This document shows positions 3,657-30,606 of a stretch of 32,000 bases of DNA, one piece after another. How positions within the stretch are numbered: position 1 is the stretch's first letter; the number at the start of each line of letters is the position of its first letter. This stretch comes from an uncultured archaeon (GTDB lineage Archaea > Asgardarchaeota > Thorarchaeia > Thorarchaeales > Thorarchaeaceae): NCBI GenBank assembly GCA_964354495.1, contig CAYHAA010000009.1, positions 30,001-62,000 on the forward strand. The letters run 5' to 3'. The position numbers were made by a program, and so were the translations under genes. The notes below the pieces were generated by a model. It was not told where the DNA came from. It worked only from the letters and a program-made list of their open reading frames with translations, and did not search any database.

Positions 3657-3847
3657 TTAGAATACACTCATGAAAGGATGGGCGAGAATAGTCAGTATAT
3701 CTTCTGGAAATAGCACGCGGTCATACTAGGTTGGCAGCAAAATTGTAGGTACCAGTATAAGGAGCACATCTGCTACGAAACCACAATGAGGAGAATCATG
3801 CCTGAAAGAGCATAGGATTTCTGAAGTATCTCAGAAGCCCAGATCAT
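3657..3847 (-). pseudogene. Probable decayed membrane-protein gene coupled to the FG-GAP gene
   Basis: ATG at 3847 overlaps the FG-GAP stop (ATGA). It reads MIWASEILQKSYALSGMILLIV; a 1-nt shift then continues GFVADVLLILVPTILLPT*YDRVLFPEDILTILAHPFMSVF*. Confidence 0.3.
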
Positions 3848-5244
3848 CTTCTCAGACGCTTGAAAGCAAATGCAACGGCAACCAGTGCGATAGGCACAGC
3901 TACCAGTAGCAATACAACCTCAGGAGTGAATGGAGGTGTGGTGTCATTAGTGGATGTGGTAGATGTGCTAGTGGTTATCGTTCTAGCTTCATCGCTGTCA
4001 TAGTTGCCAATTTCAACTGTCGCGGCGTATAGATACCCCGTTTGGCACTGCTGGAGAATCGTATCGTTCTTGAAGACAGTAATCCATGGATGCGGAAACG
4101 CGGTGACATTGTAGTATACGAAAGCCCATTCGTTCTGAGAGTCGCCATCAAGATCAGCAATGTCAATGCAGGTGTAGGCTGTCTGGTCGCCGTGACCGAG
4201 AGTGATGTTGAACGTGTTGATGATGTTGGTTTCTACCGTTTCATAAATGTAGATTAAACCATTCAATCTGTCAGGAATCACGATGTCAATCTTTCCATCA
4301 TTCGTGATATCACCGGCGAGTGTGGAGAACACTCGACTGGTCAGCAATGGACAGCGCCAAGACTCAACAAAGACGCCTCCAGCGTATTCGAGAACAAGCA
4401 CGAAATCTTGATCTTGGTTGACCAATACTTCATTCTGTCCGTCATTGTCGACATCCTCGATTTGTACCTGTCGGACCATGTTGTGAATATCGCCTGTTGT
4501 GAAGGTATAGTTCCTTATGTTTGCCCAGTGATCAGTCTGCCAGTCAAATAGCCTTAGTAAAGACACTCCTTCAGGATCAGGAAACTCCTCTGTGACAATG
4601 AATTCCAGGTCATCATTATTATCTATATCTCCAACGCAGCAAGCAGGTCCACCGATGTTCCGTGGATCCGACGAAGATATGTTGAGGGCAGGACTATACG
4701 AGTCACCGTTTCTCTTGAATACGACTGACTGAACATTGAAATCGAAGGTTCCAGCAAGAATCTCAAGATAGGGACTCCCGTCGTTATCGAGGTCGCCGAC
4801 TGCGATTGTGACAACCTGGCAGTCATCCCACAATGGATGTGTCAAGTTATGACTGAGAACCATCTGGCCTTCCACGTACTCGTAGATGTGAATCTTGCTT
4901 CCGCTATTCGCGACGATAGTTTCCATCTCAGTATCGCCGTCGATATCTGCCACTTCAATGTCGAAGATCATACCCCAACCAGGAAAATACACATCAAACG
5001 AGCACTCCTTTTGCCAGGTTTGATTGACATTCTCCCACACACTGACATCATGTGAAGCGTAGTCACCACCGAGAAGGATTTCGATTCCCGATGTTGTGTT
5101 TGAGCCTCCAATTAAGCTAATGTCACTTGGCAGGTTCAATTTATTTCTGGCATTATCAGACTTCAAAGTGACTATTGGAAACAGTAACTGAGAAGCTAAT
5201 AGGGATAAAGAAACAACTAGAGCCGCAATAGTCCACGCTTTCAT
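3844..5244 (-). CDS. Secreted, C-terminally anchored FG-GAP/VCBS-repeat beta-propeller protein
   Basis: Signal peptide; about 7 Ca-binding-type loops (ADIDGD, GDLDNDG, GDIDNN, EDVDNDG, GDITNDG, ADLDGD, GNYDSD); Thr/Ser-rich linker; C-terminal TM helix with a KRLRR tail. Confidence 0.87.
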   Translation of the reverse strand: MKAWTIAALVVSLSLLASQLLFPIVTLKSDNARNKLNLPSDISLIGGSNTTSGIEILLGGDYASHDVSVWENVNQTWQKECSFDVYFPGWGMIFDIEVADIDGDTEMETIVANSGSKIHIYEYVEGQMVLSHNLTHPLWDDCQVVTIAVGDLDNDGSPYLEILAGTFDFNVQSVVFKRNGDSYSPALNISSSDPRNIGGPACCVGDIDNNDDLEFIVTEEFPDPEGVSLLRLFDWQTDHWANIRNYTFTTGDIHNMVRQVQIEDVDNDGQNEVLVNQDQDFVLVLEYAGGVFVESWRCPLLTSRVFSTLAGDITNDGKIDIVIPDRLNGLIYIYETVETNIINTFNITLGHGDQTAYTCIDIADLDGDSQNEWAFVYYNVTAFPHPWITVFKNDTILQQCQTGYLYAATVEIGNYDSDEARTITTSTSTTSTNDTTPPFTPEVVLLLVAVPIALVAVAFAFKRLRR

Positions 5245-5530: not shown

Positions 5531-6431
5531 ATGAAACTTCGCTCTGGACAGTAGGGTATACAGAAGAATTGAGTTTCTTGAGGGACTATATGCACTGTCA
5601 GGACTGGCGCTTCTGGTTTTCTTCAGTCCTTTTGGGGGATTTGGGGTGTACACCGTTTCAGACAGACTACCCTACGAAATAGCTTTGACGTTCATAGGGG
5701 TATTTCAGCTAGTGACACTCTGGCTCGCCAGAAAGGAATTGCCAGAAAGCATCGCTGCAATGGCCTTCCTGAGCTCATTAAGCATTCTGGCACTGCTGCT
5801 CTCTATTCCCGTACTCGGTCAAGGAAACCTGTTCCTTGTCACTGTCATGTATCTGATGATCGCTTTGAATATCATCGACCTTAGTCTACTCAGTCAGGAA
5901 TCAACCACTTCGAGGATGCTGCATCGTCAGGTATTGTATTATAATGATGGGCCTGTCTTACTACTGGTCACATCGCATGTATCCTATGGTTTCATTCTGT
6001 TTTCCCTTAGCGAGTTCTGGCTACCGATAATGGCATACAGTCTGACCACGACTGCAATGATTCTGCTGTATTCAATCTGGATTGCTGGTGCTCTTCTAGT
6101 TCTTGCCATTCCCTTCTTGATACTGCGACAGAAGTATGCTGGGATCCTATTCCTTGTCTTGGATATTGCAGTTCTAATCATGTGCCTTGTTTCAGGCATC
6201 CTTGCAATTCAGCAGCCCGATGCGCTGGTTTCGCCTTGGGAACTTTACAGGGTTTATAAGTTGACACAAATCGGACAAATCGCGCTTATGGGTATCCTAT
6301 TCGGTGTTTTGCCATGCGCGGTCCTCGTGGGGTCAATACCTGCGCTGGATACAGATGAGAAAGCAATCGCTGCTAGGAGAGAGAATCTAGGGAAGCCGGA
6401 CCTTCCAGAGCACAAACAGGAAAACGAGTGA
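5531..6431 (+). CDS. Polytopic membrane protein of unknown function, with a probable frameshift near the start (track start is GTG 5646)
   Basis: About 8 hydrophobic segments. The frame is open from 5535 and encodes an extra TM helix (GLYALSGLALLVFFSPFGGFG) upstream of 5646. The only nearby ATG (5531) is out of frame by one base. Confidence 0.7.
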
Positions 6432-8355: not shown

Positions 8356-11300
8356 CTAGGATTCTGAGGAGGGGGTGCCATCATGCTTTGAGAAGAATTC
8401 GGCGAAATCTATCTCAGGACCCTCAGACTCATGCTCTTCACAGACGACAATGAGTTCCTTCTCGATTGCCTCCAGTACAAGAGTGCAGCCTCTCGCCTCT
8501 GTGAGACCATTGCTGGTCAGAGCCTTTGCCAGAAGTATGGGTTTGATGCAATGACGCATCTCCGTGTCATGCATAATCTCATCCAGTAGCTGATATCGGC
8601 TTGGAAACTTCTCGGAAGTGGCAACCTTGTAGAACCTGAGGAGAAATCCATCCATGGTTGTTTGGAAGATGTAATCAAGCATATCGATAATTCTAGAATC
8701 AGCAACCTCACTGGGCATCTCGGCAACCAGGTCATCAAGATATGTCCCCACCTGCCCGGCGTACGCTTCCATCTTTCTGTTGTGTTCAATTGAGGCGGAC
8801 TTCACTGTGATGAATGCACATATCAGATTTCTAGTTTGGACAGCGCGAATGATATCAGATATTGGAATCACCTCCATCGCCTCCTGGTCGAACATCTCGA
8901 ACTCCTCTCGAAAGTGGGTGACTGCAGTGATGAATGCTGCAACGATACCCTCCTCGAATCCGCCCTTCATCATCTTGGAGTAGATGGGAAGACCACTCTT
9001 CTTATGAAGAACTATAACACCAATGATGTTGTCTGCATCGTCAAAACGACGCTTATTAACGAGGTCGTGGTCAAGCTGCGCTTTCTTCTTCTTCGAGGAA
9101 ATGCGCAAGCCACCCAGGAGAATGATACTTGCAGCTAGTATGCCAGCCCCTCCAATGATGAAGGGTTGCATCCTACGTGGGACATCAATTATCTTAATGA
9201 AAGGCTGTTCATAGATACCCAGCTGATACAGATAGTTATCCTTCTCGATTCTTACCTCTAGTCTATATTCAGTCTCATCAGAATAGGAGCGCAAAGATGA
9301 CTGAGCTGTGTATACTCCTGCAGTCGATGTTTCATGCATCTCAAGGAAGTCACCCGACCCAGCCTCCGATATCCTGAAAGAAACACTTGCATTTGTCACC
9401 GGGATTGATGTTCCCTGCTGGGTAACTTGAACGAGGAGGTCAAAAAGCGTTCCTTCCGTGACGGAGTTCCCTGAGAGGACTACTACTTGAATCAGGATGG
9501 GATCGACATCAAGAATGAACTCGACAGAGCTACTTGCATAACCAGTCTTATTCGCTGTTATGGTCAGTGTCCATCGACCAATACGCGTCGTTTCAATGGT
9601 GATAAGATACCCTTCGTCCGCTTCGATATATGACCAGGAGATGCCAGTGTTAGGCGATGCCTGCAAATCGATTGTTGCTCCAGTGACGTTCAGCCCTGTA
9701 TCTATCCGGTCATAGAGAACCAGTCGTTCGTAGGACTCTGTAAACATTGCTGAACCGGATGGCAAGCCGCTTGCGACGTGGAGGCTAGTGGGTGTTCTAA
9801 CAGCACCGAGAGTGAGACTTGCATAGCCATTCTGATAGCCGCTCTTGCTAGCTTTGATGACTATGTCAAATATGCCTACTTCAAGGGGGGTAACAGTCAC
9901 CCGGTAGAATCCATTTCCAAGATCTTCAAACTCCGAAAACGAGGCTCCAGCAGGGGGGTTCGGAATAATCAGATTAGCGTCTTCCAGTCCTACAAAATCC
10001 TCATCATGAAACAGTAGGTATGCTGTGAATGTCTGGTCGAGTGAAATTGTCGTGCTAGTATTAAGCATATTCAGACTTGTGGCAATTGCAGTAGCAGTCA
10101 ATGTGAACAAGACAAAACGCGTCTGATGATCGGATAAGCTAGCCTGAACTAGTAGCGTGAAGGTATTCGATTCCTGCGGTTCTAGCAGGATGGAATAGAC
10201 ACCTTGTGATTCCGTCGTTGTGTTGCCCCAAAGGAGGCCTGTAGCAGGGATAACACTCTCAACGGTCACATTTGCTCCCGATAGACCATAACCAGTGCCG
10301 TTCGTGTAACGGACATAGAGCGTATAGTTCTTCCCGAATCCTACAAAATCTGCCGTACCATTCAACGAGGTCAGTACGGTCGTAATCGCCCTCACTATTA
10401 GAAAGAATGCATCAGAGGCACCCTGATAGTATTGCTTGGAAGCAGCTATTGTGACAAGATATGTACCTGAAGATGATGGGCTGAATTCAATGGACCAATC
10501 ACCAGATCCAATCTCTAACAGCTCCCAAGAGAGGGCGTCAGCGGTGCCACCAGAAAATGTGATGTTGATCTGCGCACTATTGACACCGGTACCATTTAGC
10601 ATCTTGAATCGAAACGTCGTACTGTAGACATCTGTGAGACCGATCTCAACACTAGCAGAGCCAGAGATTTCCAGCAATGTATCAACATCATTCACGACGA
10701 GTACGAAGACTGCAATTGCTGGCTCAGAATTGAGTTCTGTGGCCAGAAATCGAATAGTGAAAACACCAGCAGCATGTGGAGTGAAGGAGGTCGTGTAGTT
10801 TCCAGGTTCTCCACTTACCTCATCAACGCTAGCGTATGACAGCCCTGTTGAGGGAGATATGCCATCGATAGTGACATTGCCACCTGGGATTGGGTTGCCG
10901 CCGCTGTTACGATAGGTAAGCTTGACTGAATCATTACCCTCTAGATCGACTCGAGAGGAGATATCACCAAGAATAGAGAGCGAACTCGTTGTCGGGGAAA
11001 CTATCAGAGTAAGCAAGATAGTCTTGGATTGATGGCTTGGCTTGCTGAAGGTGGCATTCAATAGCGATGTTCCTGAATTCCTAGTAGATGTATCAAGATG
11101 CACTACGTAGATACCTGGCGTGATATCTTCCTCGACCGACCAAGACCCTGCTGTCCAGTTCATCGACATAAAGACACCTGTGTCGTTAGATATCGGCTTC
11201 CATGACGTTTGAGCGGAATCATAGAACTCGTAGTTAAAGGTCATTTCAATTATATGGCCCCATTCGTCAGCTGTCCACGGAGCATTGGGAGAATTGAGTC

Positions 11301-13437
11301 TAGTGACTCGTATTGATTGAACTGTAATATGGCAACTAATATCGTCATAGAAGGAACGAGAGGCATTCACGACAATGAGGAATTCTCCGGCACCCACTAG
11401 CGAGGTGTCGAAGGTTCCTTCCCACCAGTTATGGATGGCATTTGGCACAAAAGGCACTGATATCGTGGACCAGTTGCCTACAATCGTAGCAACTGGATCA
11501 AGAAGAGAGGCGTTCGTATCACCGTCGGTATAACGCACGACTCCTGTCACTATTAATCCAGTATCCGTAGTTATGATTTCGGGCTCTGCGATGAGTTCAG
11601 CAGCATGATGCACTTCGAATCTAGCTCTATCATATGCAATCTCCGTTCCATTCAGCCAATAGACCTCGATCCACCATTCTCCAGCTGGCGAAGAGCCGGA
11701 TGCAAAGGTCTGTTGGCTGCTGTAGATTTGGCCTGAGGACCCCCCACTGATCAACTCAGAGAACCAAATGATAGCAGATGGATTGAACCAAGTGACATTC
11801 GCATCGGTAAGCGACCCAAGAACCTGTGTAGCAGTTCCTATTGTGACGTTTGCACGAGTTGTGTTGCCGATTCTGAATCTTGTCTCATCTCTCCAAGTGG
11901 TATCAGAAATTTGTGACTTGATCGAACTAGCGTAGTTTGGTGACTCTAGTTTAATCTCCCACCATCCCAGACGATCGATGATTGAGGTAGGAACAGAGAG
12001 ATAGCCATTGCCGATATGGCAGCTGCCAGTAATATTTGTGAGAAACGGATCTGACACGGTGACATTCTCCCAGTCTATGGGAAATGTGATGTTCATTGCA
12101 GGGTCTTCATAGTTTCCAAGATAACCAACATATGAGTAGAGAGTCAGAGAAGAGCTCAGACCATGCTCGATTGTGTATGCAACACCGAAACTTGAGATGT
12201 CTGTTCTCCAGTTTGAATCGGTGAATCGGTGTGAGTGAAGGCGAGTCTTGTAGTCAAAGGATATGCTCGTATTTGATGATAGAGAAACAGTGACTGGTGT
12301 AGTCGTCCAGTATGATGTGTTCAAAACTGAAGCGACATAGATGCCAGAGGAACCCGCAAGAGGAGCAGACTGACTTCCTGCGGCAAATTCAAGTTGGACC
12401 TGATCTGGAGTGGGGGGTACAGCCTTGAGAAGAGTGACGTCATCGAGATAGACAGTAATGTATGCCGCATTGTCAATACCATCAGCTAGGTGGGATGGAT
12501 CACCATCATAGTCGTCTCTCTTATCGAGCGTCAGGGTTTGGTCGATGACTAGCCCAATCTCGAGGAGGAAACTGCTCGGAGCGCCAGTTATGTGCAATGG
12601 AATTCCTCCGGTGCTCTGCCAGACGCCTCTTTGCGTCAACAACAAGAGACTCATGTTCCAGACATTGGTCCCATTTGCAAAGAGAGCAACGCTGCAGTTG
12701 CCAGTGATTGCATCGAGTCCGGGGCCGTCAATTGGGCCTCTCAGATAGAAATAATCGAAGCTGAGCAGGAAGTCCTCTGTGTATGGTGCGTTCTGGACAG
12801 ATTGAGTCCAGACTATGCGGGTTCCCACTACATGCCCAAAGGCATTCTGACCTACTTTGCCGCCTTGACTCTCCACAGCAACATATCGACTGCCAGTCGA
12901 ATCATATGCGGCAAGCTGTACATCATCGGGATAGGTCCCAGTATCCGTGCTATCCGCGTCCCAACCAAGAGGATGATATGAAACTCCAGTGGAGGGGAAT
13001 ACGTTGGTCCCAGGATATCCGCTGCTAAAGCTTCCATTTATGGCGTACAGTCTCTCAAGATTCCATACAGTCACATCCGCCTTGTCAGCAATCCAGCTGT
13101 GCACAGTGTCTAGCGGCAAGTCATAGGCGAGATTCTCGTAGGTATCTGTTCTCGCTGAAAGATTCCCTGATGCCGAATATCCAGCTTGCTCAACAACTAC
13201 CGAATCCAAGATTCCTTCAATTGGCGTATCATCTGCTAATCTGGAAAGACCAGTCTCTGGAAGAGATCGCTCCAACTCCTGAACAACAGAGTCAGGCTCC
13301 TTAGTAATTGGCGATAAAGAGGGATAGTTCTCGCTGTTTGTACCATCATGAATCAAGCGAGGAATTCCAGGAACCCATCCCATGGACACTAGAAACAGCG
13401 ACAATAGTAGTATCGTTGACAACAACCTTCGACTCAA
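8356..13437 (-). CDS. Large cell-surface protein (1693 aa): signal peptide, beta-rich head, about 8 Ig-like repeats, TM helix, cytoplasmic longin-like domain and winged-helix-like tail
   Basis: TTG start after GGGGA. Many N-x-S/T sequons. Repeats of about 100 aa (T.L...GA.V...G.Y...A...Y). TM FIIGGAGILAASIILLGGL followed by SKKKK. Cytoplasmic IIGVIVLHKKSGLPIYS...EEGIVAAFITAVTHF. Confidence 0.85.
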   Translation of the reverse strand: MSRRLLSTILLLSLFLVSMGWVPGIPRLIHDGTNSENYPSLSPITKEPDSVVQELERSLPETGLSRLADDTPIEGILDSVVVEQAGYSASGNLSARTDTYENLAYDLPLDTVHSWIADKADVTVWNLERLYAINGSFSSGYPGTNVFPSTGVSYHPLGWDADSTDTGTYPDDVQLAAYDSTGSRYVAVESQGGKVGQNAFGHVVGTRIVWTQSVQNAPYTEDFLLSFDYFYLRGPIDGPGLDAITGNCSVALFANGTNVWNMSLLLLTQRGVWQSTGGIPLHITGAPSSFLLEIGLVIDQTLTLDKRDDYDGDPSHLADGIDNAAYITVYLDDVTLLKAVPPTPDQVQLEFAAGSQSAPLAGSSGIYVASVLNTSYWTTTPVTVSLSSNTSISFDYKTRLHSHRFTDSNWRTDISSFGVAYTIEHGLSSSLTLYSYVGYLGNYEDPAMNITFPIDWENVTVSDPFLTNITGSCHIGNGYLSVPTSIIDRLGWWEIKLESPNYASSIKSQISDTTWRDETRFRIGNTTRANVTIGTATQVLGSLTDANVTWFNPSAIIWFSELISGGSSGQIYSSQQTFASGSSPAGEWWIEVYWLNGTEIAYDRARFEVHHAAELIAEPEIITTDTGLIVTGVVRYTDGDTNASLLDPVATIVGNWSTISVPFVPNAIHNWWEGTFDTSLVGAGEFLIVVNASRSFYDDISCHITVQSIRVTRLNSPNAPWTADEWGHIIEMTFNYEFYDSAQTSWKPISNDTGVFMSMNWTAGSWSVEEDITPGIYVVHLDTSTRNSGTSLLNATFSKPSHQSKTILLTLIVSPTTSSLSILGDISSRVDLEGNDSVKLTYRNSGGNPIPGGNVTIDGISPSTGLSYASVDEVSGEPGNYTTSFTPHAAGVFTIRFLATELNSEPAIAVFVLVVNDVDTLLEISGSASVEIGLTDVYSTTFRFKMLNGTGVNSAQINITFSGGTADALSWELLEIGSGDWSIEFSPSSSGTYLVTIAASKQYYQGASDAFFLIVRAITTVLTSLNGTADFVGFGKNYTLYVRYTNGTGYGLSGANVTVESVIPATGLLWGNTTTESQGVYSILLEPQESNTFTLLVQASLSDHQTRFVLFTLTATAIATSLNMLNTSTTISLDQTFTAYLLFHDEDFVGLEDANLIIPNPPAGASFSEFEDLGNGFYRVTVTPLEVGIFDIVIKASKSGYQNGYASLTLGAVRTPTSLHVASGLPSGSAMFTESYERLVLYDRIDTGLNVTGATIDLQASPNTGISWSYIEADEGYLITIETTRIGRWTLTITANKTGYASSSVEFILDVDPILIQVVVLSGNSVTEGTLFDLLVQVTQQGTSIPVTNASVSFRISEAGSGDFLEMHETSTAGVYTAQSSLRSYSDETEYRLEVRIEKDNYLYQLGIYEQPFIKIIDVPRRMQPFIIGGAGILAASIILLGGLRISSKKKKAQLDHDLVNKRRFDDADNIIGVIVLHKKSGLPIYSKMMKGGFEEGIVAAFITAVTHFREEFEMFDQEAMEVIPISDIIRAVQTRNLICAFITVKSASIEHNRKMEAYAGQVGTYLDDLVAEMPSEVADSRIIDMLDYIFQTTMDGFLLRFYKVATSEKFPSRYQLLDEIMHDTEMRHCIKPILLAKALTSNGLTEARGCTLVLEAIEKELIVVCEEHESEGPEIDFAEFFSKHDGTPSSES

Positions 13438-13633
13438 GAGTCTTCATCCCCAAGCTAATTGTGCGTGCATATTTCGATTACGAACCGAACCTATGCTGTA
13501 GGTCAGCTGCAGGCGTTGAGTGTCAGCAAGAAGATTTCTAATTACCTTTGCGACATAATCCATGTACTCTATGACACATCATCAGCTGACTGACATACAT
13601 TACTCGAGAATCAGTACAAGTGTCTTTTGTGTA

Positions 13634-16600
13634 TCACTCAGCAGCCGAACCCCCTACTCCACCACTATCATGTGGATAAATCGGAAGAACCAATTCCTGT
13701 TCAATGGCATCCATCACAATGAGATAGGCATCATCCTCATCAACGCCGTAGGTTTCAAGGAGCTGTACAATGTTCGCTAGTTTGAATGTCTCGACACCAT
13801 CGGTCTTGTTCACGATGTCTTCGATATGCCTGATCTTCTTTGGAAGTCGCTTCTCGCCAATTTGGTATGTCTGGAGAAGTGCACCATCCACAAGGTCATC
13901 AAATAGCCATTCAAAGGTCTTAATGACTTTCACGTCTGCAACCTCAGCAGGGGGCTGAGCAAGCGACTCATCAAACATCATACCAATGGCGCGGGCGTAG
14001 TTAATCATGCGCTCCTCCTGTTGCCTAGATGCAGAAGTCAGAGTGATGAAGGCACAAATCAGATTTTGAGTGGGCACTGCCCTGACAATATCCGAGATAG
14101 GTATGACGACATAGTCATCTTTCTTTCCTCTTTTATCAAACTCGGTTCTGAAATGCATGATAGCAGTGATGAATGCTGAAAGAATCCCTTCTTCGAATCC
14201 GCCTTTGAGTGTCCTGGAATAGACTGGAAGACCACTCAGTTTGTGAAGTACAATTATACCCAAGAGATTGTTGGCATCAGCAAAACGCGTCTTGATATCC
14301 CGAGCCAAAGCGTGTTTTCTCTGCTTCTTTCGTGAACTGATTTTCTGTCCTGCTACTGCGGCTACGAGCACTCCAGCAACCAGGATGATTTGCGAAGAGT
14401 ACTCCATTATTGTCCGAAAAAGCCGTGCGTTTGCATCGAATGTCGGAACAAGTGCCTGACTGAAGGAGTGTATCATTTCGTGGTTCTCTTTTTCCACCAG
14501 AATGACGATTTCATAGGTCGACTCTCCAGCTAATGGCATGACTATGCTAGCACTATATACTCCGGGGAGTATCTCGTCCATGGTTTTGCTGGCATAGGGT
14601 GCGCCTTGAGATTTTATGCTTAGACTCACATTCGCATTAGTTACAGGATTGTCTGTATCAGCCTCGACCACTTCGACTTCAATTGTCAGTGATTGGTATT
14701 CAGGTCCTCCAAGGCTTGTGAGAAGGTCCACTCTTATCGGCACTCTATTCACTAGGAAAGATAGGACGTGAGTCTGGTTCTCATAGCCTTCTTTCGAAAA
14801 CGTGATTCGGATGCTATAGTCTCGTGATCCGAGAGGAATCAGGGAGAGATTGTAGTGACCAGCTCCGGTGTTTGTAATCATGGCCCACTCTGAACCCTCT
14901 TCAGTGACCTCAACAGATGCTCCATCGACTCCAGACCCATTGTAGCTCATTAAATACACATAATCAAAGCTATACTGACGACCATAGATGAGCGGTTCGA
15001 GGGGTCCCGTGGGTGCATCCAGAGAAGTAAGAAACTGTGATCTTATAGTGATGACAAGGGGAGTGGTTTCGAAGTAAGGAGCAGCTGAAGTTAATGAAAC
15101 ATCAAAATCACCTGCGCCAACAAGAGCAGTATCGAAATCAGCCTGCCACCAATTCTTGACAACATTTGGTTCGAATTCAACGATTCCAGCCGCCCAAATT
15201 CCTACGACTTCAGCGCCGTCGCCCAGAAGAAACAGACTGTTCTCAACATCATAAAATCGCAGTACGACAGTAATAGGTTGACCAACAACAGTGTCTAGGT
15301 TACCTGAGAACACAAGCTCCAGAGCAGCCTGATGGTGAAGAGCAAATCTCTCGAAACTATATGCCAACTCGCTACCATTTGACCAATAATAGACTATGCT
15401 CCAAATGCCAGCAGTTGTGTTCGTAGCGCCAAACGTGACCGGAATACTCTCAGCCGCACCAATCGCACCGCTTATGGTCGACGATTCATACCATATAGAC
15501 GAATTCGGCATTGCCCATTTGAAATTCACTGCATCGGATAGGACGGGAATATCCTCAGCTGAACCGAGCGATATGTGTATGCGTGCACTATCATTACTGT
15601 GAAATATCGTTTCGCTAATCCAATTCATAGTTCCAGTGTCATACCTCTCAATGACTGCTTCAGAGGCGTAGTTCGGACTCTGGCATTGTATGTTCCACCA
15701 GCCGAGACGATCCAATACTGCTGTTGGTATCTCAACTAAATCACTCTCCAGAGCACAGCTTGACGTAACATCTGCCAAAAAGGGATCGCGAATTGTGAAG
15801 TTCTGCCAGTCCACCGGATGATAGATTCGCAGGACCAGTTCATCATAGAGCCCAATGAATCCAAGGTACGTGAACATCTCCAAAGAGCCACTTTCATCGG
15901 AGTGAACTGTGTATGCTACCCCAACCTGCATCGGGTCCATAGCAGGACGGGAACTCAAGAATCGATGGTTCAGTAATCGAACACTGTAATCCAGAGAAAC
16001 GCTTGTGTTTGCCGTAATTCCAATACTTAGTGGGCCAAGTGTCCAATAGCTGTTATTTATCAGCAGACCGGAGCCGGTGCCAGAGTCGCCCAGAATTGGC
16101 GTCGTTATTCCATCTACAGCGAGATGTAAAGCAACCTCTTCGCAGCTGGGTGGTGTATCTCGTACTAGTGAAACGTCATCTAGACAAACGTTGATGTACT
16201 GCGTGTTGACTGTACCATCAGCTAGGCCGTTGCCATCGTAATCAAGGTCTGCATCAACCACAAATGTAGAATCTATCACAAGGCCAATCTCGAATTCTGT
16301 AGCTCCACTTGGAGCTGCAATACTTATAGGAAGCACTCCGGTATCGAACCACGTACCCTTCGTGCTCAGAGTTGGCAAATCAATACTATGTATCGGAACG
16401 CCATCAATGAAGACCTTGAGTGAATACTTCCCAGCGAATATGACATTGAGGGGACCCTGCAGTAGGAGATAATTGAAGCTGAGCAGGAAATGGTCAGTAT
16501 ACGGTGTATTCTCGAAAGTCTGAATCCATGTGATGTTCGTTCCAGCATAGTGGGTATACTGATTTTGGCCGGGATTGGTGAGTTCTGCCGAGTTCTGAAC

Positions 16601-17173
16601 TGTGACATATTGTTCGCTACTCTGTTCGTAAGAGACCTGCTGAACCTGTCCTGTATCCCCACTATAGCTGACTGCCGACCAGCCCAAGGGATAGTTCACC
16701 AGAGTGCCATTCGGATTGACGGTGTATCCCGGATAGCCTTCATCAAAAGTCCCATTGACAACATAAAGACGAGCCAATTCCCAAACATCCACCTCGGCTC
16801 TACTACCAATCCAGCTATGATCGGTGTCAATCGCAAGACTCTGTTGGGTGTTGGCTGAAGTGTCCGTTCTTGCAGAGATATTACCTGTTGACGAATAGCC
16901 TCTCTGTTCAACAACAACGGGATCTAGGACTCCTTGAGCAGGTGCAGGGGTGGTGTTGACATCTGAGGCAATCCCTGCATCATATGGAGAGATAGTGGAT
17001 TCGAGAAGATGTGGCTTTGATTCATCCACCATCTCATTCGGTGAAACGCCATAAGGCAGGAAGCTAGTACTCGAGTCTCTTAGATCTAGGGGCAACGGCA
17101 TGAACACGGACGAGATGAACAATACGATGAGAGAGATAACAACTGCTCTCATGTACAGTGTTCTTTGCCTCAT
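13634..17173 (-). CDS. Paralogous cell-surface protein (1179 aa): same head and cytoplasmic domains, about 3 Ig-like repeats
   Basis: Aligns by eye with the neighbour: GVLDPVVVEQRGYSSTGNISARTDT vs GILDSVVVEQAGYSASGNLSARTDT; LDRLGWW; LLGIIVLHKLSGLPVYS...KGGFEEGILSAFITAIMHF. Confidence 0.85.
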   Translation of the reverse strand: MRQRTLYMRAVVISLIVLFISSVFMPLPLDLRDSSTSFLPYGVSPNEMVDESKPHLLESTISPYDAGIASDVNTTPAPAQGVLDPVVVEQRGYSSTGNISARTDTSANTQQSLAIDTDHSWIGSRAEVDVWELARLYVVNGTFDEGYPGYTVNPNGTLVNYPLGWSAVSYSGDTGQVQQVSYEQSSEQYVTVQNSAELTNPGQNQYTHYAGTNITWIQTFENTPYTDHFLLSFNYLLLQGPLNVIFAGKYSLKVFIDGVPIHSIDLPTLSTKGTWFDTGVLPISIAAPSGATEFEIGLVIDSTFVVDADLDYDGNGLADGTVNTQYINVCLDDVSLVRDTPPSCEEVALHLAVDGITTPILGDSGTGSGLLINNSYWTLGPLSIGITANTSVSLDYSVRLLNHRFLSSRPAMDPMQVGVAYTVHSDESGSLEMFTYLGFIGLYDELVLRIYHPVDWQNFTIRDPFLADVTSSCALESDLVEIPTAVLDRLGWWNIQCQSPNYASEAVIERYDTGTMNWISETIFHSNDSARIHISLGSAEDIPVLSDAVNFKWAMPNSSIWYESSTISGAIGAAESIPVTFGATNTTAGIWSIVYYWSNGSELAYSFERFALHHQAALELVFSGNLDTVVGQPITVVLRFYDVENSLFLLGDGAEVVGIWAAGIVEFEPNVVKNWWQADFDTALVGAGDFDVSLTSAAPYFETTPLVITIRSQFLTSLDAPTGPLEPLIYGRQYSFDYVYLMSYNGSGVDGASVEVTEEGSEWAMITNTGAGHYNLSLIPLGSRDYSIRITFSKEGYENQTHVLSFLVNRVPIRVDLLTSLGGPEYQSLTIEVEVVEADTDNPVTNANVSLSIKSQGAPYASKTMDEILPGVYSASIVMPLAGESTYEIVILVEKENHEMIHSFSQALVPTFDANARLFRTIMEYSSQIILVAGVLVAAVAGQKISSRKKQRKHALARDIKTRFADANNLLGIIVLHKLSGLPVYSRTLKGGFEEGILSAFITAIMHFRTEFDKRGKKDDYVVIPISDIVRAVPTQNLICAFITLTSASRQQEERMINYARAIGMMFDESLAQPPAEVADVKVIKTFEWLFDDLVDGALLQTYQIGEKRLPKKIRHIEDIVNKTDGVETFKLANIVQLLETYGVDEDDAYLIVMDAIEQELVLPIYPHDSGGVGGSAAE

Positions 17174-17270: not shown

Positions 17271-18122
17271 TCAGTTTCCATTTGTAACTACTCTTCCCTG
17301 GGCAATCACATCATGCTTATGGATACTCTCAAGCGATCGAGCCTCTGCAAACATCTCAAGGTCACGGTCACCAAAGGTATCCTTTGAAAACTGGAGAATA
17401 TTGCGACACACATCCTCGACAAGAAGAGGATTCTCGTGCATCTGCTTCGTGACAAGCATCTCATCCTCCAGCTTCAGTAGAGAATACGTCTTACTTGAGA
17501 AAGAATTCTCGATTACTTCGATCATGGAACCATACTTGGGAATCGCGTCAGTCTTACCAATTACACGCAGCTTTCCTATTGCTCGTTGGATATGAGTAAG
17601 TCCCTCATTGTTGGCCATACAGTGCGGACAGACAGTGTTTCCGATTACTTGGACCTCAATCTCGTGCATGAAGGGCCGATGGTTCTCTTTACGAGTGATT
17701 GCAGTGATATCACATACTTCCCATGTACGTTTGTTCGACACAGGAGTCTTGGAAGTATACCCGAACTCGAACTCGAATTTCACCTCTCCTCTGCTGAACG
17801 GGTGTTTGTGAGCGAGCCCTTCGAGTATCTTGATCTGAAGTTCTTCGATTGAGGGATGCACCCTAAATTGCTCGCTCAGTTCCTCAGTCATTGACTCAAC
17901 AAGTCGAGACATATGTACTCCTTTCAATTCTGCAGGAAGGTCTATTGTGATCTCCACATTCGGCACTATATGATATCTCATTCCACTTCGTTCAGTAACA
18001 ACGAAGGTCTTGAGGTTCTTTACACCGACCTTGTCTAGCTGAATTCGATACTTGGGTTTCTCGTTCTGAGTGTCAATGAACAAATCGTGAGTCTCCGTAT
18101 ACATGCTGTCACTGGTCTTCAT
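17271..18122 (-). CDS. mptA: GTP cyclohydrolase IB (MptA/FolE2 family)
   Basis: KGVHMSRLVE, TVCPHC, THIQRA, LKLEDE, HENPLLVEDVCR and ESIHKHD motifs. Alternative start is ATG 18104. Confidence 0.9.
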   Translation of the reverse strand: MKTSDSMYTETHDLFIDTQNEKPKYRIQLDKVGVKNLKTFVVTERSGMRYHIVPNVEITIDLPAELKGVHMSRLVESMTEELSEQFRVHPSIEELQIKILEGLAHKHPFSRGEVKFEFEFGYTSKTPVSNKRTWEVCDITAITRKENHRPFMHEIEVQVIGNTVCPHCMANNEGLTHIQRAIGKLRVIGKTDAIPKYGSMIEVIENSFSSKTYSLLKLEDEMLVTKQMHENPLLVEDVCRNILQFSKDTFGDRDLEMFAEARSLESIHKHDVIAQGRVVTNGN

Positions 18123-18561
18123 AGCAGCCCGTGGACCCTGCGCTCTCGTCCAAGCACGCTTTCACACGGTAGCCTTTGGGATATTTGAACTGCCCATGGA
18201 TGTACTTTGCCAAGAGCTCTGCCGTGGTGGCTTTTATTGGAATCACTATACAGTCCTCTTCCGGAAACACATACCGCTTAGAGGCCACATTTACCTCGAC
18301 AAAGCCGTTCTCGGTCATCACAGTGACAGTAGATGACTCTCCAGGAAGCATGACCTTGTGGTCAAGCATCTTACAGATCTGAATGGCTCGGTCCTTGACT
18401 TCTCTGAAGTCAACTACCATCCCATCTTCGTTGAGAGGCCCGCGGATGAACACCTCGAGCACGTAGTTGTGCCCATGCAGATGTTCACAGTCCCCGCAGG
18501 AAAGCAGGAAATGTGAAGCACTGAAATGCATCCTCTGATCCTTGACCTGTAAGCTAAACAA
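18109..18561 (-). CDS. queD: 6-carboxy-5,6,7,8-tetrahydropterin synthase / PTPS family
   Basis: HFSASHFL, CEHLHGHNY, VVDFREVK, LDHK and TTAELLA motifs. TTG start preceded by GGAGG. Overlaps or abuts mptA. Confidence 0.9.
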   Translation of the reverse strand: MFSLQVKDQRMHFSASHFLLSCGDCEHLHGHNYVLEVFIRGPLNEDGMVVDFREVKDRAIQICKMLDHKVMLPGESSTVTVMTENGFVEVNVASKRYVFPEEDCIVIPIKATTAELLAKYIHGQFKYPKGYRVKACLDESAGSTGCYEDQ

Positions 18562-18606
18562 TGTGATACCTCCAGATGCTATTTGAAACTCCGCGGAAGT
18601 TGCATG

Positions 18607-18615
18607 TAAAACTGT
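18607..18615 (-). promoter_or_regulatory. Putative BRE/TATA element ACAGTTTTA upstream of queD
   Basis: The same 9-mer occurs twice upstream of the thermosome gene (23772 and 23807). It lies 46 nt upstream of the queD start. Confidence 0.5.
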
Positions 18616-18629
18616 CGGAAGCTGAACTT

Positions 18630-20390
18630 CTACTGATCAATGCCCCGCTGTCGCTCAAACGCCTCAATCAAATCATCAACTGTCGTGGCTTGGGTGGAAT
18701 CCTTGTCATCACGCCATCTTCCTGTGAACCGAGGGAATCTGATTGCTAGCCCACCCTTGCCCTTCAGCCGGTTTCTTCCTGCAGGATGCGTGGGACTGAT
18801 TGTTATCTCATCTCCGAGGACTTCTATCACTTCTACTGGTTCAAACCAGACATCAGCCTCAATATCTGAAATGACCTTGGGACTCCTTGATTCCAGTACG
18901 TGCTCTTCGAGGCGCTCTTTGAACTCTGCAAGCATCTCTTCGGTGAAACCAGTCCCAATCTTGCAGACTGTCGGATAGGTATCAGTCATGTCGTCATACA
19001 CAGAGGCGAGGATTGCGCCATAGAGGCCGGTTCTCTTTCCTCGACCGTGGAGAGCGCCCACAATGACAAGATCAATGGAGTCTGCAAGACCTTCCGCATA
19101 GGAAGCCTTCAGTTTGATCCAGAGCCAGCTTCGAGCTCCAGCCTGATATCTGGAACTCTCATGTACTGCCTTTGCAATGACTCCCTCATGCCCTGTGTCC
19201 AGCGCTCGTTTGAAGATCTCATATAGTCGGTCGGGATTGTCAGTCAATTCTGCCGTTGTGAGTTGCACTCTGTCACTTGTCTGAATTGTTCGCTCTATCA
19301 GTTTCCTACGTTCGAGCATCGGAAGAGCTGTGACATCTTTGCCATTGAGAAACAGGATATCAAAGACATACAGGGCAACTGGAACATCATCTTGGGTCTT
19401 CTCAATGTCTGTCTTTCGCCTCCGACGCATTAGTTCCTGAAATGGGCGGATCCTTCCTGTTTCGGGGTCGATTGCTACACACTCACCCTCCAAGACGCAT
19501 GATTTCGCTTTGACCTGAGCTCGAATCAGGCCCACGACATCAGGATACTGATTTGTGATGATTTCCTGACGACGTGAGTACAGAGTGATCTTGTCGCCAT
19601 TCTTATGGGCTTGAATTCTCTCACCGTCATATTTGAACTCGACAAGAGCCTTCATGCCGACCTTCTCCATTATCTCGGCAGGGCTTGAGAGTTTCTTGGC
19701 GGCCATCATTCGAATTGGCACAGCGACTTCTGTGTGAATCTTGCGAACGCCGTCTATACCTTTCTCTGCAAGAACACACGCAACCCGACTGAGGTCGCTA
19801 CAGACGTTGAATGCATCTTCAATAGCACTCCGTGCATCCCTGCTCCCCGTAAATGCAGTTGAGAGAGCATCAATAACGCCCATATCACCAAGTCCGAGTC
19901 GTAGTGAGCCAGTCACAGTTCGCAGAATGTACCTTGCCTCGATTGGATGTGCATCTGTGAGAATACTGATAAGCTTGGATATCTTCTCTTTACTGCTCCC
20001 GGAGCCACTGATCTTCGCGGCCTCGTCCAGAGTATCATAGACTCCCGAAACTGTGAGGGCTTGAGCAAACAGGGTTGCCTGCGCACTTGCTCCCAGCAAT
20101 TCCTCTGCAGTGCTTCCAATGTCGCCAGTCTTTCGAAGGATTTCTCTCACAGCACTTTCTGGAACGGACGCAGCCGCTGCCACGACCTGAATCGCCATCT
20201 TCTCAGCCACACCTATTTCGGGTTCGTTTTTCCAGTCTGGATGTAGCTTCCCCATAGTCAGCGCGACAATCTTGTCAACCACGGATGGTTCGGCAGCCTT
20301 GAGCAAATCAGAGAGGATTTTGATTTTCTCAAGAGACCCTGAGGTCGACTCGATTTCGTCATAGGCTTGAGCCAAATTCTCGTAAAGCAT
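18630..20390 (-). CDS. lig: ATP-dependent DNA ligase (archaeal)
   Basis: Motif I EFKYDGER, plus VLEGEC, YVFDIL, HEGVIAK, WLWIKLK, DLVIVG and LAIRFPRF. True start is likely ATG 20390 rather than the track's 20468. Confidence 0.97.
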   Translation of the reverse strand: MLYENLAQAYDEIESTSGSLEKIKILSDLLKAAEPSVVDKIVALTMGKLHPDWKNEPEIGVAEKMAIQVVAAAASVPESAVREILRKTGDIGSTAEELLGASAQATLFAQALTVSGVYDTLDEAAKISGSGSSKEKISKLISILTDAHPIEARYILRTVTGSLRLGLGDMGVIDALSTAFTGSRDARSAIEDAFNVCSDLSRVACVLAEKGIDGVRKIHTEVAVPIRMMAAKKLSSPAEIMEKVGMKALVEFKYDGERIQAHKNGDKITLYSRRQEIITNQYPDVVGLIRAQVKAKSCVLEGECVAIDPETGRIRPFQELMRRRRKTDIEKTQDDVPVALYVFDILFLNGKDVTALPMLERRKLIERTIQTSDRVQLTTAELTDNPDRLYEIFKRALDTGHEGVIAKAVHESSRYQAGARSWLWIKLKASYAEGLADSIDLVIVGALHGRGKRTGLYGAILASVYDDMTDTYPTVCKIGTGFTEEMLAEFKERLEEHVLESRSPKVISDIEADVWFEPVEVIEVLGDEITISPTHPAGRNRLKGKGGLAIRFPRFTGRWRDDKDSTQATTVDDLIEAFERQRGIDQ

Positions 20391-20429
20391 CGATGTCCTG
20401 ACTCCCAAGAATAGTGGCTCACCATATGC

Positions 20430-20437
20430 TTTATAAA
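20430..20437. promoter_or_regulatory. Palindromic TATA box TTTATAAA between divergent lig and rps17e
   Basis: Sits near the middle of the 95-bp gap, about 40 nt from the lig ATG and 48 nt from the rps17e TTG. Confidence 0.6.
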
Positions 20438-20485
20438 CACAGTCAAGAGCACTGCCGCATCCATACAAAGACCGGTGAGCTTGAA

Positions 20486-22223: not shown

Positions 22224-23312
22224 CTAATCAGCCCAGATTGGCTCGTGAGCCTTTGTTGTTTCGTGGTAGATCTCGCCCATGCATATCTTGTCACATCTTC
22301 TCAGAAGCAGATAGATACTGAAAGCAAGAAGAAACGCGGCAGCTGGAGCAGCCATGGACAAAATGAAGGCATATGTATAGGCATGCCGTCCTGTCATTGC
22401 TGAGAAGAGAATTAGGAAATACGTTATACCGAAAACCAGCGTTGTTATGCCCAGTCTTCTTCCGTTTCTTTTGCTTTGCTCCCACTCCTTGACAACCCAG
22501 ACGACGGCTTTAGCTGCTTCTTCATCGAGTTTTGAAGAGGATAGTACCTCATCTCTGGCCACCTGAGGATGAACCTTGTACATCACGACAGCTCGCTCAA
22601 AGGCAGAATCGTGAGTCCAGAAGACGCCTTTGAAGAGCAAAAAGAAGAACGCATACTCAAAGAACAGGATTCCAAGAGGAAGTGGCAATAAGATTGGCAA
22701 TAACAGAGGAGTGAAGAGGAAAACTGGTTCATAGAGTCGTAGAAGTAGTGCCAAGTAAATCGAGGAGCCAGAAAACATCGATACTGCTGCAATGATATCC
22801 AAGATGTTTCTGCGGCTGGGTCTGTGCAATAGATGAAATCCTAGCAGTGCCTCTCCACTAGCAGGCATCTTCAGAATCAAGTCGATCATTGACTCAGAGA
22901 CAATAACCGCATTGAAGAGCGAATTGAATGTAGATACAATGTACGGATCAGAACTTCTTCTTTGCCAGACATGGGCTAGCCCGTGACTACCTACACGTTC
23001 GTGTGCCAGCTCGACAATCTGGGAGAACTGCTCATTGACAATAGGTGAACGAAAGCGATTCTCGAGAATAGAGAGGCAAAGAAAATAGATAGCTGCGCCT
23101 ACTCCACAAGTGAATAGGAAGACTAGTATCAGATTCATGAGCGATGATGAAGGGAGTACATAGACAATAAGGGACCAAGGGATTGCCAATGCAAGCATTA
23201 TCATGTATCTGAACATCCGCGACGTTGAGGGAACCCGGGTTCCAAACCAGCGAGCATATCTTTCAGACATTTTGCTTGGCTTGACTACTCGTCTGTCCTG
23301 TTGGACACTCAT
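22224..23312 (-). CDS. Polytopic membrane protein resembling a degenerate M48/HtpX peptidase
   Basis: Two N-terminal TMs, then PYIVSTFNSLFNAVIVSESMI...GEALLGFHLLH where HtpX has EAVLAHELGH, then further TMs. ATG 23312 follows GAGGAG. Confidence 0.6.
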   Translation of the reverse strand: MSVQQDRRVVKPSKMSERYARWFGTRVPSTSRMFRYMIMLALAIPWSLIVYVLPSSSLMNLILVFLFTCGVGAAIYFLCLSILENRFRSPIVNEQFSQIVELAHERVGSHGLAHVWQRRSSDPYIVSTFNSLFNAVIVSESMIDLILKMPASGEALLGFHLLHRPSRRNILDIIAAVSMFSGSSIYLALLLRLYEPVFLFTPLLLPILLPLPLGILFFEYAFFFLLFKGVFWTHDSAFERAVVMYKVHPQVARDEVLSSSKLDEEAAKAVVWVVKEWEQSKRNGRRLGITTLVFGITYFLILFSAMTGRHAYTYAFILSMAAPAAAFLLAFSIYLLLRRCDKICMGEIYHETTKAHEPIWAD

Positions 23313-23404
23313 GGTACACTCCTCGCCACGCAGCACCTATGACTCACTAAGGAAGAATGAGGATATAATGTATTTGTTCAACGAATGAGTTGACATATGC
23401 AGAC

Positions 23405-30518: not shown

Positions 30519-30606
30519 ATTGCGACCTCTCCCGCAAGAGATATAATCAGCATAGCAGCATGTCTTGATGACTGTCCGGAGGCAGATACATTTGAGTAAG
30601 GGTGAT

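Follow-up and report, generated by a model that had tools for sequence, protein, structure and literature searches.

A tandem pair of Thorarchaeota surface glycoproteins with a predicted longin-fold cytoplasmic tail

The longin fold is used by eukaryotes to dock small GTPases, but it also serves purposes that do not involve GTPases, as in SNAREs and coat subunits. Asgard genomes encode dozens of small GTPases and roadblock/longin proteins, and we know of no internal membrane traffic that has been clearly tied to them. The locus described here raises the question of what such a domain would do at the inner end of a cell-surface protein. The window, i.e. the whole 32,000-nucleotide stretch of a Thorarchaeaceae contig that was analysed, carries two adjacent open reading frames, for which a sequence-only reading had proposed a signal peptide, a shared head, an Ig-like stalk, a single transmembrane (TM) helix and a strongly conserved, longin-like cytoplasmic tail.

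Both frames are present as described, and their paralogy is confirmed by BLASTP, which aligned the long-stalk protein (P0001) and the short-stalk protein (P0002) in two blocks, one spanning the N-terminus, the head and the first stalk domains (35% identity over about 920 aa, E 2e-157) and the second the last stalk domains, the TM helix and the tail (E 1e-62). The heads are 39% identical and the tails 41% identical overall, rising to 53% in the longin part, and the P0001 tail keeps 32 of the 32 invariant tail residues. P0002 groups with its orthologues in a clade of 99 sequences with a median length of 1176 aa (support 1.0), while P0001 belongs to a separate clade of 24 sequences (support 0.998). 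The two proteins are ancient paralogues within a family of type I single-pass surface glycoproteins, which is confined to Asgard archaea within what was searched. Their features are as follows.

13634..17173, reverse strand: P0002, short-stalk paralogue, 1179 aa, gene including stop
17081..17173, reverse strand: P0002 N-terminal signal/hydrophobic segment, residues 1-31 (19-mer hydrophobic peak 2.49, residues 4-31, after MRQR)
15014..16966, reverse strand: P0002 head, residues 70-720, Trp-rich and family-specific (alignment A4, 42 invariant columns)
14411..15013, reverse strand: P0002 stalk, residues 721-921, about two Ig-like/CarboxypepD_reg-like domains (Pfam, sub-threshold)
14330..14410, reverse strand: P0002 TM helix and flanks, residues 922-948, with six K/R within the 15 residues after it
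13871..14329, reverse strand: P0002 juxtamembrane helix and predicted longin-fold domain, residues 949-1101 (AlphaFold2 model, structure matches)
13667..13870, reverse strand: P0002 winged-helix-like C-terminal domain, residues 1102-1169 (DSSP, structure matches, net charge -7)
8356..13437, reverse strand: P0001, long-stalk paralogue, 1693 aa, TTG start as listed, gene including stop
13360..13437, reverse strand: P0001 N-terminal signal/hydrophobic segment, residues 1-26 (hydrophobicity scan)
11293..13230, reverse strand: P0001 head, residues 70-715 (head profile E 6e-278)
9172..11292, reverse strand: P0001 stalk, residues 716-1422, about seven Ig-like domains (sub-threshold Pfam matches, repeated registers)
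9103..9171, reverse strand: P0001 TM helix, residues 1423-1445 (hydrophobicity peak 2.27)
8635..9102, reverse strand: P0001 juxtamembrane helix and putative longin-fold domain, residues 1446-1601 (fold taken from the P0002 model)
8428..8634, reverse strand: P0001 winged-helix-like domain, residues 1602-1670 (alignment A3, net charge -4)
8356..8427, reverse strand: P0001 acidic C-terminal extension and stop, residues 1671-1693 (not conserved in alignment A1)

The shared head, earlier put at about 600 aa, extends over about 650 aa. No Pfam family and no PDB match was obtained for it in sequence searches, and the label "adhesin" is therefore a guess. An atlas feature search with the head gave a best score of 0.84, which is below the meaningful level, and its GH101/galactose-binding hint is taken as a lead only. 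An Ig-like character of the stalk is suggested by Pfam matches (Big_1, Filamin, Big_6 and CarboxypepD_reg) that all lie below the curated cut-offs: 30.8 bits vs 34.9 for Big_1, 25.0 vs 26.9 for Filamin and 23.0 vs 32.3 for CarboxypepD_reg. Residues 837-1099 of P0001 give sub-threshold matches to Big_1, Filamin, Big_6 and Ig_GEX2_N, and homologues carry precomputed Big_1, CarboxypepD_reg and Invasin_D3 matches. The stalk of P0002 can be aligned with that of P0001 in several registers, so that the stalk is repetitive and P0001 has the longer one. No off-diagonal rows came out of a self-BLAST of the P0001 stalk, and the repeat structure is read from these matches between the two proteins.

The disposition of the proteins in the membrane was judged from hydrophobicity scans and residue counts. 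In both proteins a single hydrophobic segment lies at the N-terminus and a single TM helix about 230-250 aa from the C-terminus, the latter followed by a K/R-rich stretch, in line with the proposed signal peptide and basic stop-transfer. The ectodomains of P0001 and P0002 carry 34 and 16 N-x-S/T sequons, while the tails carry 0 and 1, respectively; lysine makes up 1.1-1.4% of the ectodomains and 6.8-6.9% of the tails. The signal, the single TM helix, the basic flank and the sequon asymmetry are those of type I single-pass glycoproteins. This asymmetry in sequons and lysine, together with the K/R residues after the TM helix, fits an N-terminus outside and a C-terminus inside for both proteins, so that by these sequence criteria the tail would be cytoplasmic, as had been supposed. 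The regions originally assigned to the tails (8356-9105 and 13634-14340) cover residues 1445-1693 of P0001 and 946-1179 of P0002, i.e. everything beyond the TM helix.

The fold of the tail was approached by modelling that of P0002 with AlphaFold2 (model mffa365c66844, pLDDT 84.6, pTM 0.81). The predicted structure is tripartite: a juxtamembrane helix leads into a longin fold, after which comes a small alpha/beta domain that is acidic and resembles a winged helix. DSSP assigned a helix at 2-20, strands at 22-29 and 35-40, a helix at 47-67, a short element at 76-77, strands at 82-86 and 90-96, and helices at 102-119 and 133-152; the model thus presents the secondary-structure order of longins, with a five-stranded sheet between helices, and agrees with the beta-beta-alpha-beta-beta-beta-alpha pattern that had been read by eye. 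It superposes on solved longins over the whole domain, the best match being sedlin (1h3q, Z 11.0, rmsd 2.8, 124 aa), followed by Sec22b (2nut_C, Z 10.7, 120 aa), 1ifq (Z 10.6) and the VAMP7 longin (2vx8, Z 10.2); AP sigma is also matched by the longin part at Z 10-11, these matches to sedlin, Sec22b, VAMP7 and AP sigma extending over 120-128 residues, and the longin domain of a Lokiarchaeota Roadblock-Longin protein (8yqg) at Z 9.6 over 129 aa. Roadblock structures give shorter and weaker matches than longins (Z 6.7-8.4 over 85-105 residues), and the tail shares with them an N-terminal helix. In two structure searches the 50 top rows held nothing but longin or roadblock-superfamily proteins, and the top Foldseek ranks are held by coat zeta/sigma/mu subunits, TRAPP and Gtr/Ragulator chains. 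PAS and GAF, considered as other possible folds, were rejected, as neither occurs among the top rows of the Foldseek and structure searches.

Sequence profiles did not recognize the tail. No Pfam family matched the P0001 or P0002 tail at E<=1, and among 87 tails none was recognized by a Pfam longin or roadblock model above threshold; the strongest sub-threshold matches were MAPKK1_Int (E 0.014, three tails) and Robl_LC7 (PF03259, E 0.023, two tails), and the models Longin, Sedlin_N, Sybindin, Clat_adaptor_s and Fuz_longin_1 gave a single match, that of Fuz_longin_1 at E 0.13. Pfam and PDB sequence searches with the tail and with its C-terminal part likewise returned no significant match. Since no Pfam longin or roadblock model reaches threshold, the homology to longins rests on predicted structure; the model and its matches support a longin fold for the first 150 residues of the tail, and the longin reading has stood in this form. 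An atlas feature search with the tail gave a best score of 0.76, below the meaningful level.

The tail contains the most conserved segment of the protein, in line with the earlier description. In 81 orthologues the juxtamembrane and longin segment shows 64.5% mean identity with 18% invariant columns, as compared to 55% identity for the head and 43%, with 3% invariant columns, for the winged-helix part, the lowest of all. The invariant tail residues L28, H29, S32, G33, P35, Y37, S38, K42, G44, E47, A52, F53, I54, A56, H59 and F60 cluster in strand 1, the loop between strands 1 and 2, strand 2 and helix 1; in GAP-type longins the GTPase pocket is lined by this region (PMC12290439). In an alignment of 87 sequences of the superfamily, D7, G22, F42, A45 and F49 are invariant.

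One search returned 285 homologues and another 230 cluster representatives, so that the pattern cannot be ascribed to chance. A search of sequencing runs listed no RNA data set with this sequence, and the DNA data sets listed shared at most 0.22 of its words. The genome has four such genes, and the head and tail profiles match the same four ORFs, always together. Close relatives occur in 71 of the 76 sampled genomes of the same family (Thorarchaeaceae), with weaker matches elsewhere, and tandem arrays of two or three genes recur in at least 12 related genomes. The same tail stands behind ectodomains of very different length; distant relatives in other Asgard lineages combine it with a different ectodomain, and there are minimal forms of a TM helix and tail only. 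Conserved neighbours are housekeeping genes (DNA ligase, PTPS and FolE2). No small-GTPase, roadblock or longin gene lies near any of the four loci, the 27 Ras-like and 11 Roadblock matches of the genome all being located elsewhere, and no signalling partner was found in the neighbourhoods of the four copies and of four related genomes.

A surface glycoprotein with a longin tail was not found described in the literature searched, and comparison with known systems shows where the likeness ends. Eukaryotic longins (sedlin/TRAPPC2, Sec22b, VAMP7, Ykt6, AP sigma, mu-N and zeta/delta-COP) share the whole-domain fold (Z 10-11, 113-128 residues, rmsd 2.8-3.6) and the same succession of strands and helices down to the C-terminal helix pair, but only 5-19% sequence identity and no Pfam match. 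Unlike them, the Thorarchaeota domain forms the tail of a type I surface glycoprotein after a TM helix, has a conserved juxtamembrane helix before it and a winged-helix-like domain behind it, and is without a SNARE motif and without a coat or TRAPP partner. The Asgard roadblock/longin proteins compared, presumed GTPase platforms of the same phylum and fold superfamily (Lokiarchaeota Roadblock-Longin 8yqg/8yqk, LokiRagM 9m28 and MK-D1 Roadblock 9jq8/9jue), match at Z 9.6 (8yqg), 8.4 (9jue) and 7.7 (9m28). Fusions of roadblock and longin domains to Rag/Arf-like GTPases are frequent in Asgard archaea (Tran et al. 2024, PMC10933270); these proteins are soluble or GTPase-fused, whereas the present longin is part of a membrane-spanning protein, and a transmembrane or extracellular part is not mentioned for them in that paper, where the word "transmembrane" occurs 0 times. 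In the SRX domain of SRP receptor alpha (with SR-beta) and in MglB (with MglA), a longin or roadblock domain docks a small GTPase at the membrane; structural scores are Z 8.8 for 6frk_y, 8.2-8.4 for 5ck3 and 6.9-7.7 for MglB. These pairs are the analogue of the working model given below, except that their anchor comes from the GTPase or a separate subunit, while the Thorarchaeota longin itself belongs to the membrane-spanning surface protein.

The analysis shows how the proteins are built, how they are oriented by sequence criteria, which fold the tail is predicted to have, and how the family is conserved and distributed. The tail is tentatively proposed to couple the surface structure to GTPase-controlled machinery inside the cell through a docked partner, a reading to which we give a little less than an even chance. 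The head, carried on a stalk of variable length, would presumably bind the environment or another cell, and the fixed module under the membrane, composed of the conserved juxtamembrane helix, the longin domain and the small acidic winged-helix-like domain, would offer the longin as a docking platform at the inner membrane face. The partner would most likely be one of the many small GTPases of the genome, or a roadblock or longin partner of one, and the surface structure would thereby be coupled to the machinery under its control, in a direction of information flow that we infer. Counted in favour of this reading are the predicted fold, the topology, the same tail across different ectodomains, the coupling of head and tail, the conserved patch, the Ras-like and Roadblock matches in the genome and the known Asgard fusions to GTPases; counted against it are the absence of a GTPase, roadblock or longin gene by the loci, the lack of a Pfam longin match, the GTPase-independent roles of other longins and the lack of a ligand-binding family in the head.

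Other functions of the tail would make different use of the same parts. The last 65-70 residues, overlooked by the sequence-only reading, form a winged-helix-like domain in the models (DSSP). The resemblance is weak (Z 4.3-6.3), the best rows being generic winged-helix and RRE-like domains at Z 5-6, and the model of this C-terminal part has a low pLDDT of 67.8. Their resemblance to winged helices including MecI, BlaI and BlcR (Z 4.3-5.4) could suggest a membrane-tethered transcription regulator, the tail of which is released by proteolysis on a surface signal so that the domain binds DNA. This is very improbable, as the domain is the least conserved part of the tail and net acidic (median charge -3 over 94 sequences, in keeping with the values listed above), has only two alignment columns with at least 60% K/R and near-invariant residues that are D, G and E (alignment A3), and hence shows no conserved basic DNA-recognition surface; a protease gene linked to the loci is also lacking. 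A longin followed by a small C-terminal domain is likewise the order in NPRL2/NPRL3 (GATOR1/SEACIT) and in the "NPRL2-like" Asgard families. The tail might be a membrane-anchored catalytic GAP of the NPRL2/FLCN/SMCR8 type, perhaps identical with the Thor family of Liu et al., and would then inactivate a membrane-bound reaction partner of the Rag- or Arf-like GTPase class. Those families are reported from most Thor and a few Loki MAGs (Liu et al., bioRxiv 10.1101/2020.10.19.343400), a distribution that resembles and fits the present one. Foldseek alignments of the whole tail with the SEA-complex and GATOR1 chains 8adl_S and 7t3a_C span 261-272 columns, and the invariant G33 and P35 lie just before strand 2, at the site of the GP motif of GAP longins. 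The motif in the tail, however, is G-x-P (S-G-[LIV]-P) and not GP, and neither a conserved arginine finger nor any invariant arginine is present across the 87-sequence superfamily alignment, as compared to the GP motif plus catalytic arginine that mark GAP longins (PMC12290439). GATOR1 chains, at Z 8.5-8.6, rank below sedlin, Sec22b and AP sigma and align over the longin part only; none is found among the 50 rows of the structure search with the C-terminal domain, the best matches of which are generic winged helices and not NPRL2. The NPRL2/NPRL3 profile (Pfam NPR2, PF06218) has no match in the whole genome in six frames at E<=10, nor on the tails, and a catalytic GAP is accordingly quite improbable.

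Less remote, although still unlikely, is an anchoring or sorting handle, in which the tail has no GTPase contact and either ties the protein to a scaffold (cytoskeleton, ESCRT, coat-like or TRAPP/Sec23-like) or clusters it laterally, and would thereby fix its position, for example on protrusions, or form a surface coat that stands in for an S-layer. The structural neighbours include sorting and coat-binding longins (Sec22b with Sec23/24, VAMP7 with AP-3 delta, AP sigma/mu), the genes occur in several copies per genome and in tandem arrays, and cultured Lokiarchaeia have many complex surface proteins on a single membrane with no S-layer (PMC9834061). In 9 of the 242 family tails the C-terminus carries F-x-x-[DE]-V-E-x-L-L, a motif consistent with the acidic dileucine pattern, but it is absent from P0001 and P0002, a machinery that reads such signals is not known from Thorarchaeota, and neither scaffold nor coat genes are linked to the loci.

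Carried beyond this locus, the docking reading would make these proteins an Asgard-wide class of single-pass surface receptors, whose longin and winged-helix tail recruits or regulates small GTPases, a prokaryotic precursor of the way in which eukaryotes couple receptors to GTPases or cargo receptors to coats, with the four Thorarchaeota paralogues serving as parallel input channels; we regard this extension as doubtful. A conserved surface protein with a longin platform under the plasma membrane is a defined bait in the search for cell-surface GTPases and partners; the tails, at about 230 aa, are readily produced as recombinant proteins, and cultured Lokiarchaeia have a related subfamily that could be localised by cryo-ET. 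Should the partner be a GTPase, the coupling of surface proteins to longin-GTPase modules would predate eukaryotes.

The presence of two adjacent, matching ORFs and their BLASTP alignment confirm the tandem paralogues described in the sequence-only reading. The N-terminus, head and first stalk domains of P0001 and P0002 share 35% identity over ∼920 residues (E 2e-157), and a further aligned block spans the final stalk domains, transmembrane (TM) helix and tail (E 1e-62). The two genes, separated by 196 bp, and other features of the window are as follows.

13634-17173, minus strand: P0002, short-stalk paralogue, ORF of 1179 aa, ATG start
8356-13437, minus strand: P0001, long-stalk paralogue, ORF of 1693 aa, TTG start
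17271-20468, minus strand: DNA ligase, PTPS/QueD-like gene and FolE2 (GTP cyclohydrolase IB), immediately upstream of the receptor genes and co-oriented with them
3844-5244, minus strand: FG-GAP/VCBS-repeat (integrin-alpha-like) protein, within 3-6 kb downstream of P0001
2248-3510, plus strand: HisKA/HATPase_c histidine kinase, within 3-6 kb downstream of P0001
1020-2102 and 27652-28860, plus strand: two prenyltransferase or squalene-hopene-cyclase-like alpha/alpha toroid-repeat proteins (Pfam SQHop_cyclase_C, E 3.4e-13; Prenyltrans, E 1.1e-14)

The window belongs to contig C9 of a Thorarchaeota (Asgard) assembly of 3.3 Mb that is 97.7% complete. Thermosome, ATP-dependent DNA ligase and FolE2 genes are among the neighbours, which are typical of archaea. 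No Pfam match at E≤0.001 was obtained for five ORFs of 150-526 aa (5646-6431, 22224-23336, 25596-26465, 28938-30518 and 30565-31017). The FolE2-side block lies 97 bp from P0002, and all four other genomes compared (loci L007, L008, L009 and L010) preserve this gene order (DNA ligase, PTPS, FolE2, receptor genes) with gaps of 33-126 bp; this may reflect a shared transcript or mere conserved synteny.

At the N-terminus, both proteins have a few basic residues and then a single hydrophobic segment; their one strong TM helix lies 232-249 residues before the end of the protein and leads into a K/R-rich stretch. N-x-S/T sequons number 34 and 16 in the ectodomains (about two-fold over composition) as compared to 0 and 1 in the tails. 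Lysine is scarce in the ectodomains (1.1-1.4%), which are rich in Ser/Thr, and the tails are of ordinary cytoplasmic composition. These features agree with the signal peptide, single TM helix with basic stop-transfer and inward-facing tail proposed earlier, and display the pattern of archaeal type I surface glycoproteins with a predicted cytoplasmic C-terminus.

The AlphaFold2 model of the tail, built from 15 diverse tails (pLDDT 84.6, pTM 0.81), shows a helix running on from the membrane (residues 2-20), a strand-strand-helix-strand-strand-strand-helix-helix domain (21-153) and a small strand-helix-strand-helix-helix-strand unit (154-216). Longin domains top both the exhaustive structure comparison and the re-examined Foldseek list, as evident from the matches to sedlin (Z 11.0, 124 residues, rmsd 2.8), Sec22b (Z 10.7), VAMP7 (Z 10.2), AP-3 sigma (Z 9.9) and the longin domain of a Lokiarchaeota Roadblock-Longin protein (Z 9.6), each spanning the complete domain. 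Roadblock proteins gave weaker and shorter matches (Z 6.7-8.4, 85-105 residues). PAS and GAF folds were absent from the top-ranked structure-search results, and the modelled fold thus supports the longin-like cytoplasmic domain of the sequence-only reading. No longin or roadblock family profile was significant on the 87 tails searched; the sole recurrent faint matches were to MAPKK1_Int and Robl_LC7, which belong to the roadblock superfamily.

Among 81 P0002 orthologues, the juxtamembrane helix and longin domain form the most conserved segment (64.5% mean identity, 18% invariant columns) as compared to the head (55%), stalk (57%) and winged-helix part (43%). The invariant positions of the close family include R15, D18 and N21 of the juxtamembrane helix and a dense cluster that begins as strand 1 ends and extends to helix 1 (L28, H29, S32, G33, P35, Y37, S38, K42, G44, E47, A52, F53, I54, A56, H59 and F60), and all invariant residues are kept in both P0001 and P0002.

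The shared head (∼residues 70-720) shows good conservation: an alignment of 20 diverse sequences has 42 invariant columns, in many of which the residue is Trp, Gly or Asn. In the stalk, Ig-like families of Pfam (Big_1, Filamin, Big_6 and CarboxypepD_reg) were matched below threshold only. The P0002 stalk (∼200 residues) aligns with several registers of the P0001 stalk (∼700 residues), so that the two proteins differ mainly by the number of stalk domains. The paralogue on contig C2 has an inserted ConA-like lectin segment (Laminin_G_3, E 9e-6, 26.3 bits, just below the 27.6-bit cut-off). An adhesin role of the ectodomain is thus plausible, and is unproven, since the head has neither a Pfam family nor a PDB sequence match in single-sequence and profile searches.

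The genome possesses four copies, and head and tail profiles match exactly the same four ORFs. The two copies outside the window are as follows.

G000:C23:24600-27689 (L005:7619-10690): third paralogue, P0262, cut by the contig end, with the last 160 head residues assembled
G000:C2:71200-74700 (L006:8201-11701): fourth paralogue, P0263, without Ig-like stalk; its lectin segment separates the head from a conserved N-terminal strand motif

Each of the four copies belongs to a separate supported clade of the 209-tail tree (support 0.91-1.0), that of P0002 comprising 99 sequences of median length 1176 aa and that of P0001 24 longer proteins, which indicates that the duplication is old. The tail profile matched 230 cluster representatives, 114 of them below 1e-30; the module is nearly always C-terminal, and the preceding ectodomains range from a bare TM anchor to ∼2100 residues. 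Of 301 sampled genomes of the phylum, 76 belong to the window's own family, and 71 of these gave strong matches (1-8 copies each); arrays of two or three such genes recur in at least 12 related genomes, in answer to the earlier proposal to survey family size and tandem conservation.

Weaker matches (1e-5 to 1e-13) were recorded in many other families of the sample. All eleven inspected, from five genomes of four other families, sit in large ORFs (384-2329 aa), and all ten translated display a TM helix, a basic stretch and a tail opening with the same conserved motif. By this common layout, the tail module is widespread in Asgard archaea; the head of P0001 and P0002 is specific to the Thorarchaeota branch. 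Some inspected matches carry an extra C-terminal domain of ∼85 residues. A distant tail subfamily (L011, L012 and L013; P0245, P0248-P0260) combines a different ectodomain with such a conserved domain, which ends in ATLL[KR]LIPDL and probably forms a second winged helix.

On the simplest interpretation, the surface protein would present its longin domain just inside the membrane, as a platform for a partner in the cytoplasm. Throughout the tree of life, roadblock and longin domains serve as platforms for small GTPases, and their fusion to Rag/Arf-like GTPases is frequent in Asgard archaea (PMC10933270); for this reason, a GTPase or a GTPase-bound roadblock/longin protein is tentatively rated the likeliest partner, at somewhat short of an even chance. 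No GTPase, roadblock, longin or kinase-type partner gene adjoins the four genomic loci or four related loci, and the 27 Ras-like and 11 Roadblock matches of the genome are all located away from the four loci. That the tail is an anchoring or sorting handle working without a GTPase is the less probable, rather doubtful alternative. Nine of the 242 family tails (P0158, P0165, P0170, P0173, P0176, P0179, P0234, P0240 and P0246) have an F-[LIV]-x-[DE]-[VI]-E-x-L-L motif, usually followed by K, in the acidic extension beyond their winged-helix domain. The motif conforms to the acidic dileucine pattern of eukaryotes, [DE]xxxL[LI]; its regular expression gave 10 matches in 271,776 residues, 9 of them within the 5,768 extension residues. 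The motif is absent from P0001 and P0002.

GAP-type eukaryotic longins carry a GP motif in the loop before strand 2, beside a catalytic arginine (PMC12290439), whereas the tail has G-x-P and the wider tail superfamily lacks any invariant arginine; the invariant patch is therefore read as a putative binding surface rather than a proven catalytic site. A catalytic NPRL2/FLCN-type GAP is improbable, the Pfam NPR2 model being without a match in the genome. The C-terminal unit modelled alone from 94 sequences (pLDDT 67.8, less confident) resembles winged-helix domains (Z 4.3-6.3). It is net acidic and no conserved basic surface was found on it, so we do not think that it binds DNA; membrane-tethered transcription regulators are the most improbable of the readings considered.

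Liu et al. list 130 roadblock/longin asCOGs (bioRxiv 10.1101/2020.10.19.343400), and the Thor family of longins with a small NPRL2-like C-terminal domain that they describe may be the same as this tail, although the Pfam NPR2 model has no match in the genome. In the literature search, no paper was found that describes surface proteins crossing the membrane once and bearing a longin domain on the cytoplasmic side. P0001 and P0002 present a known fold, the longin, in an undescribed receptor-like architecture.
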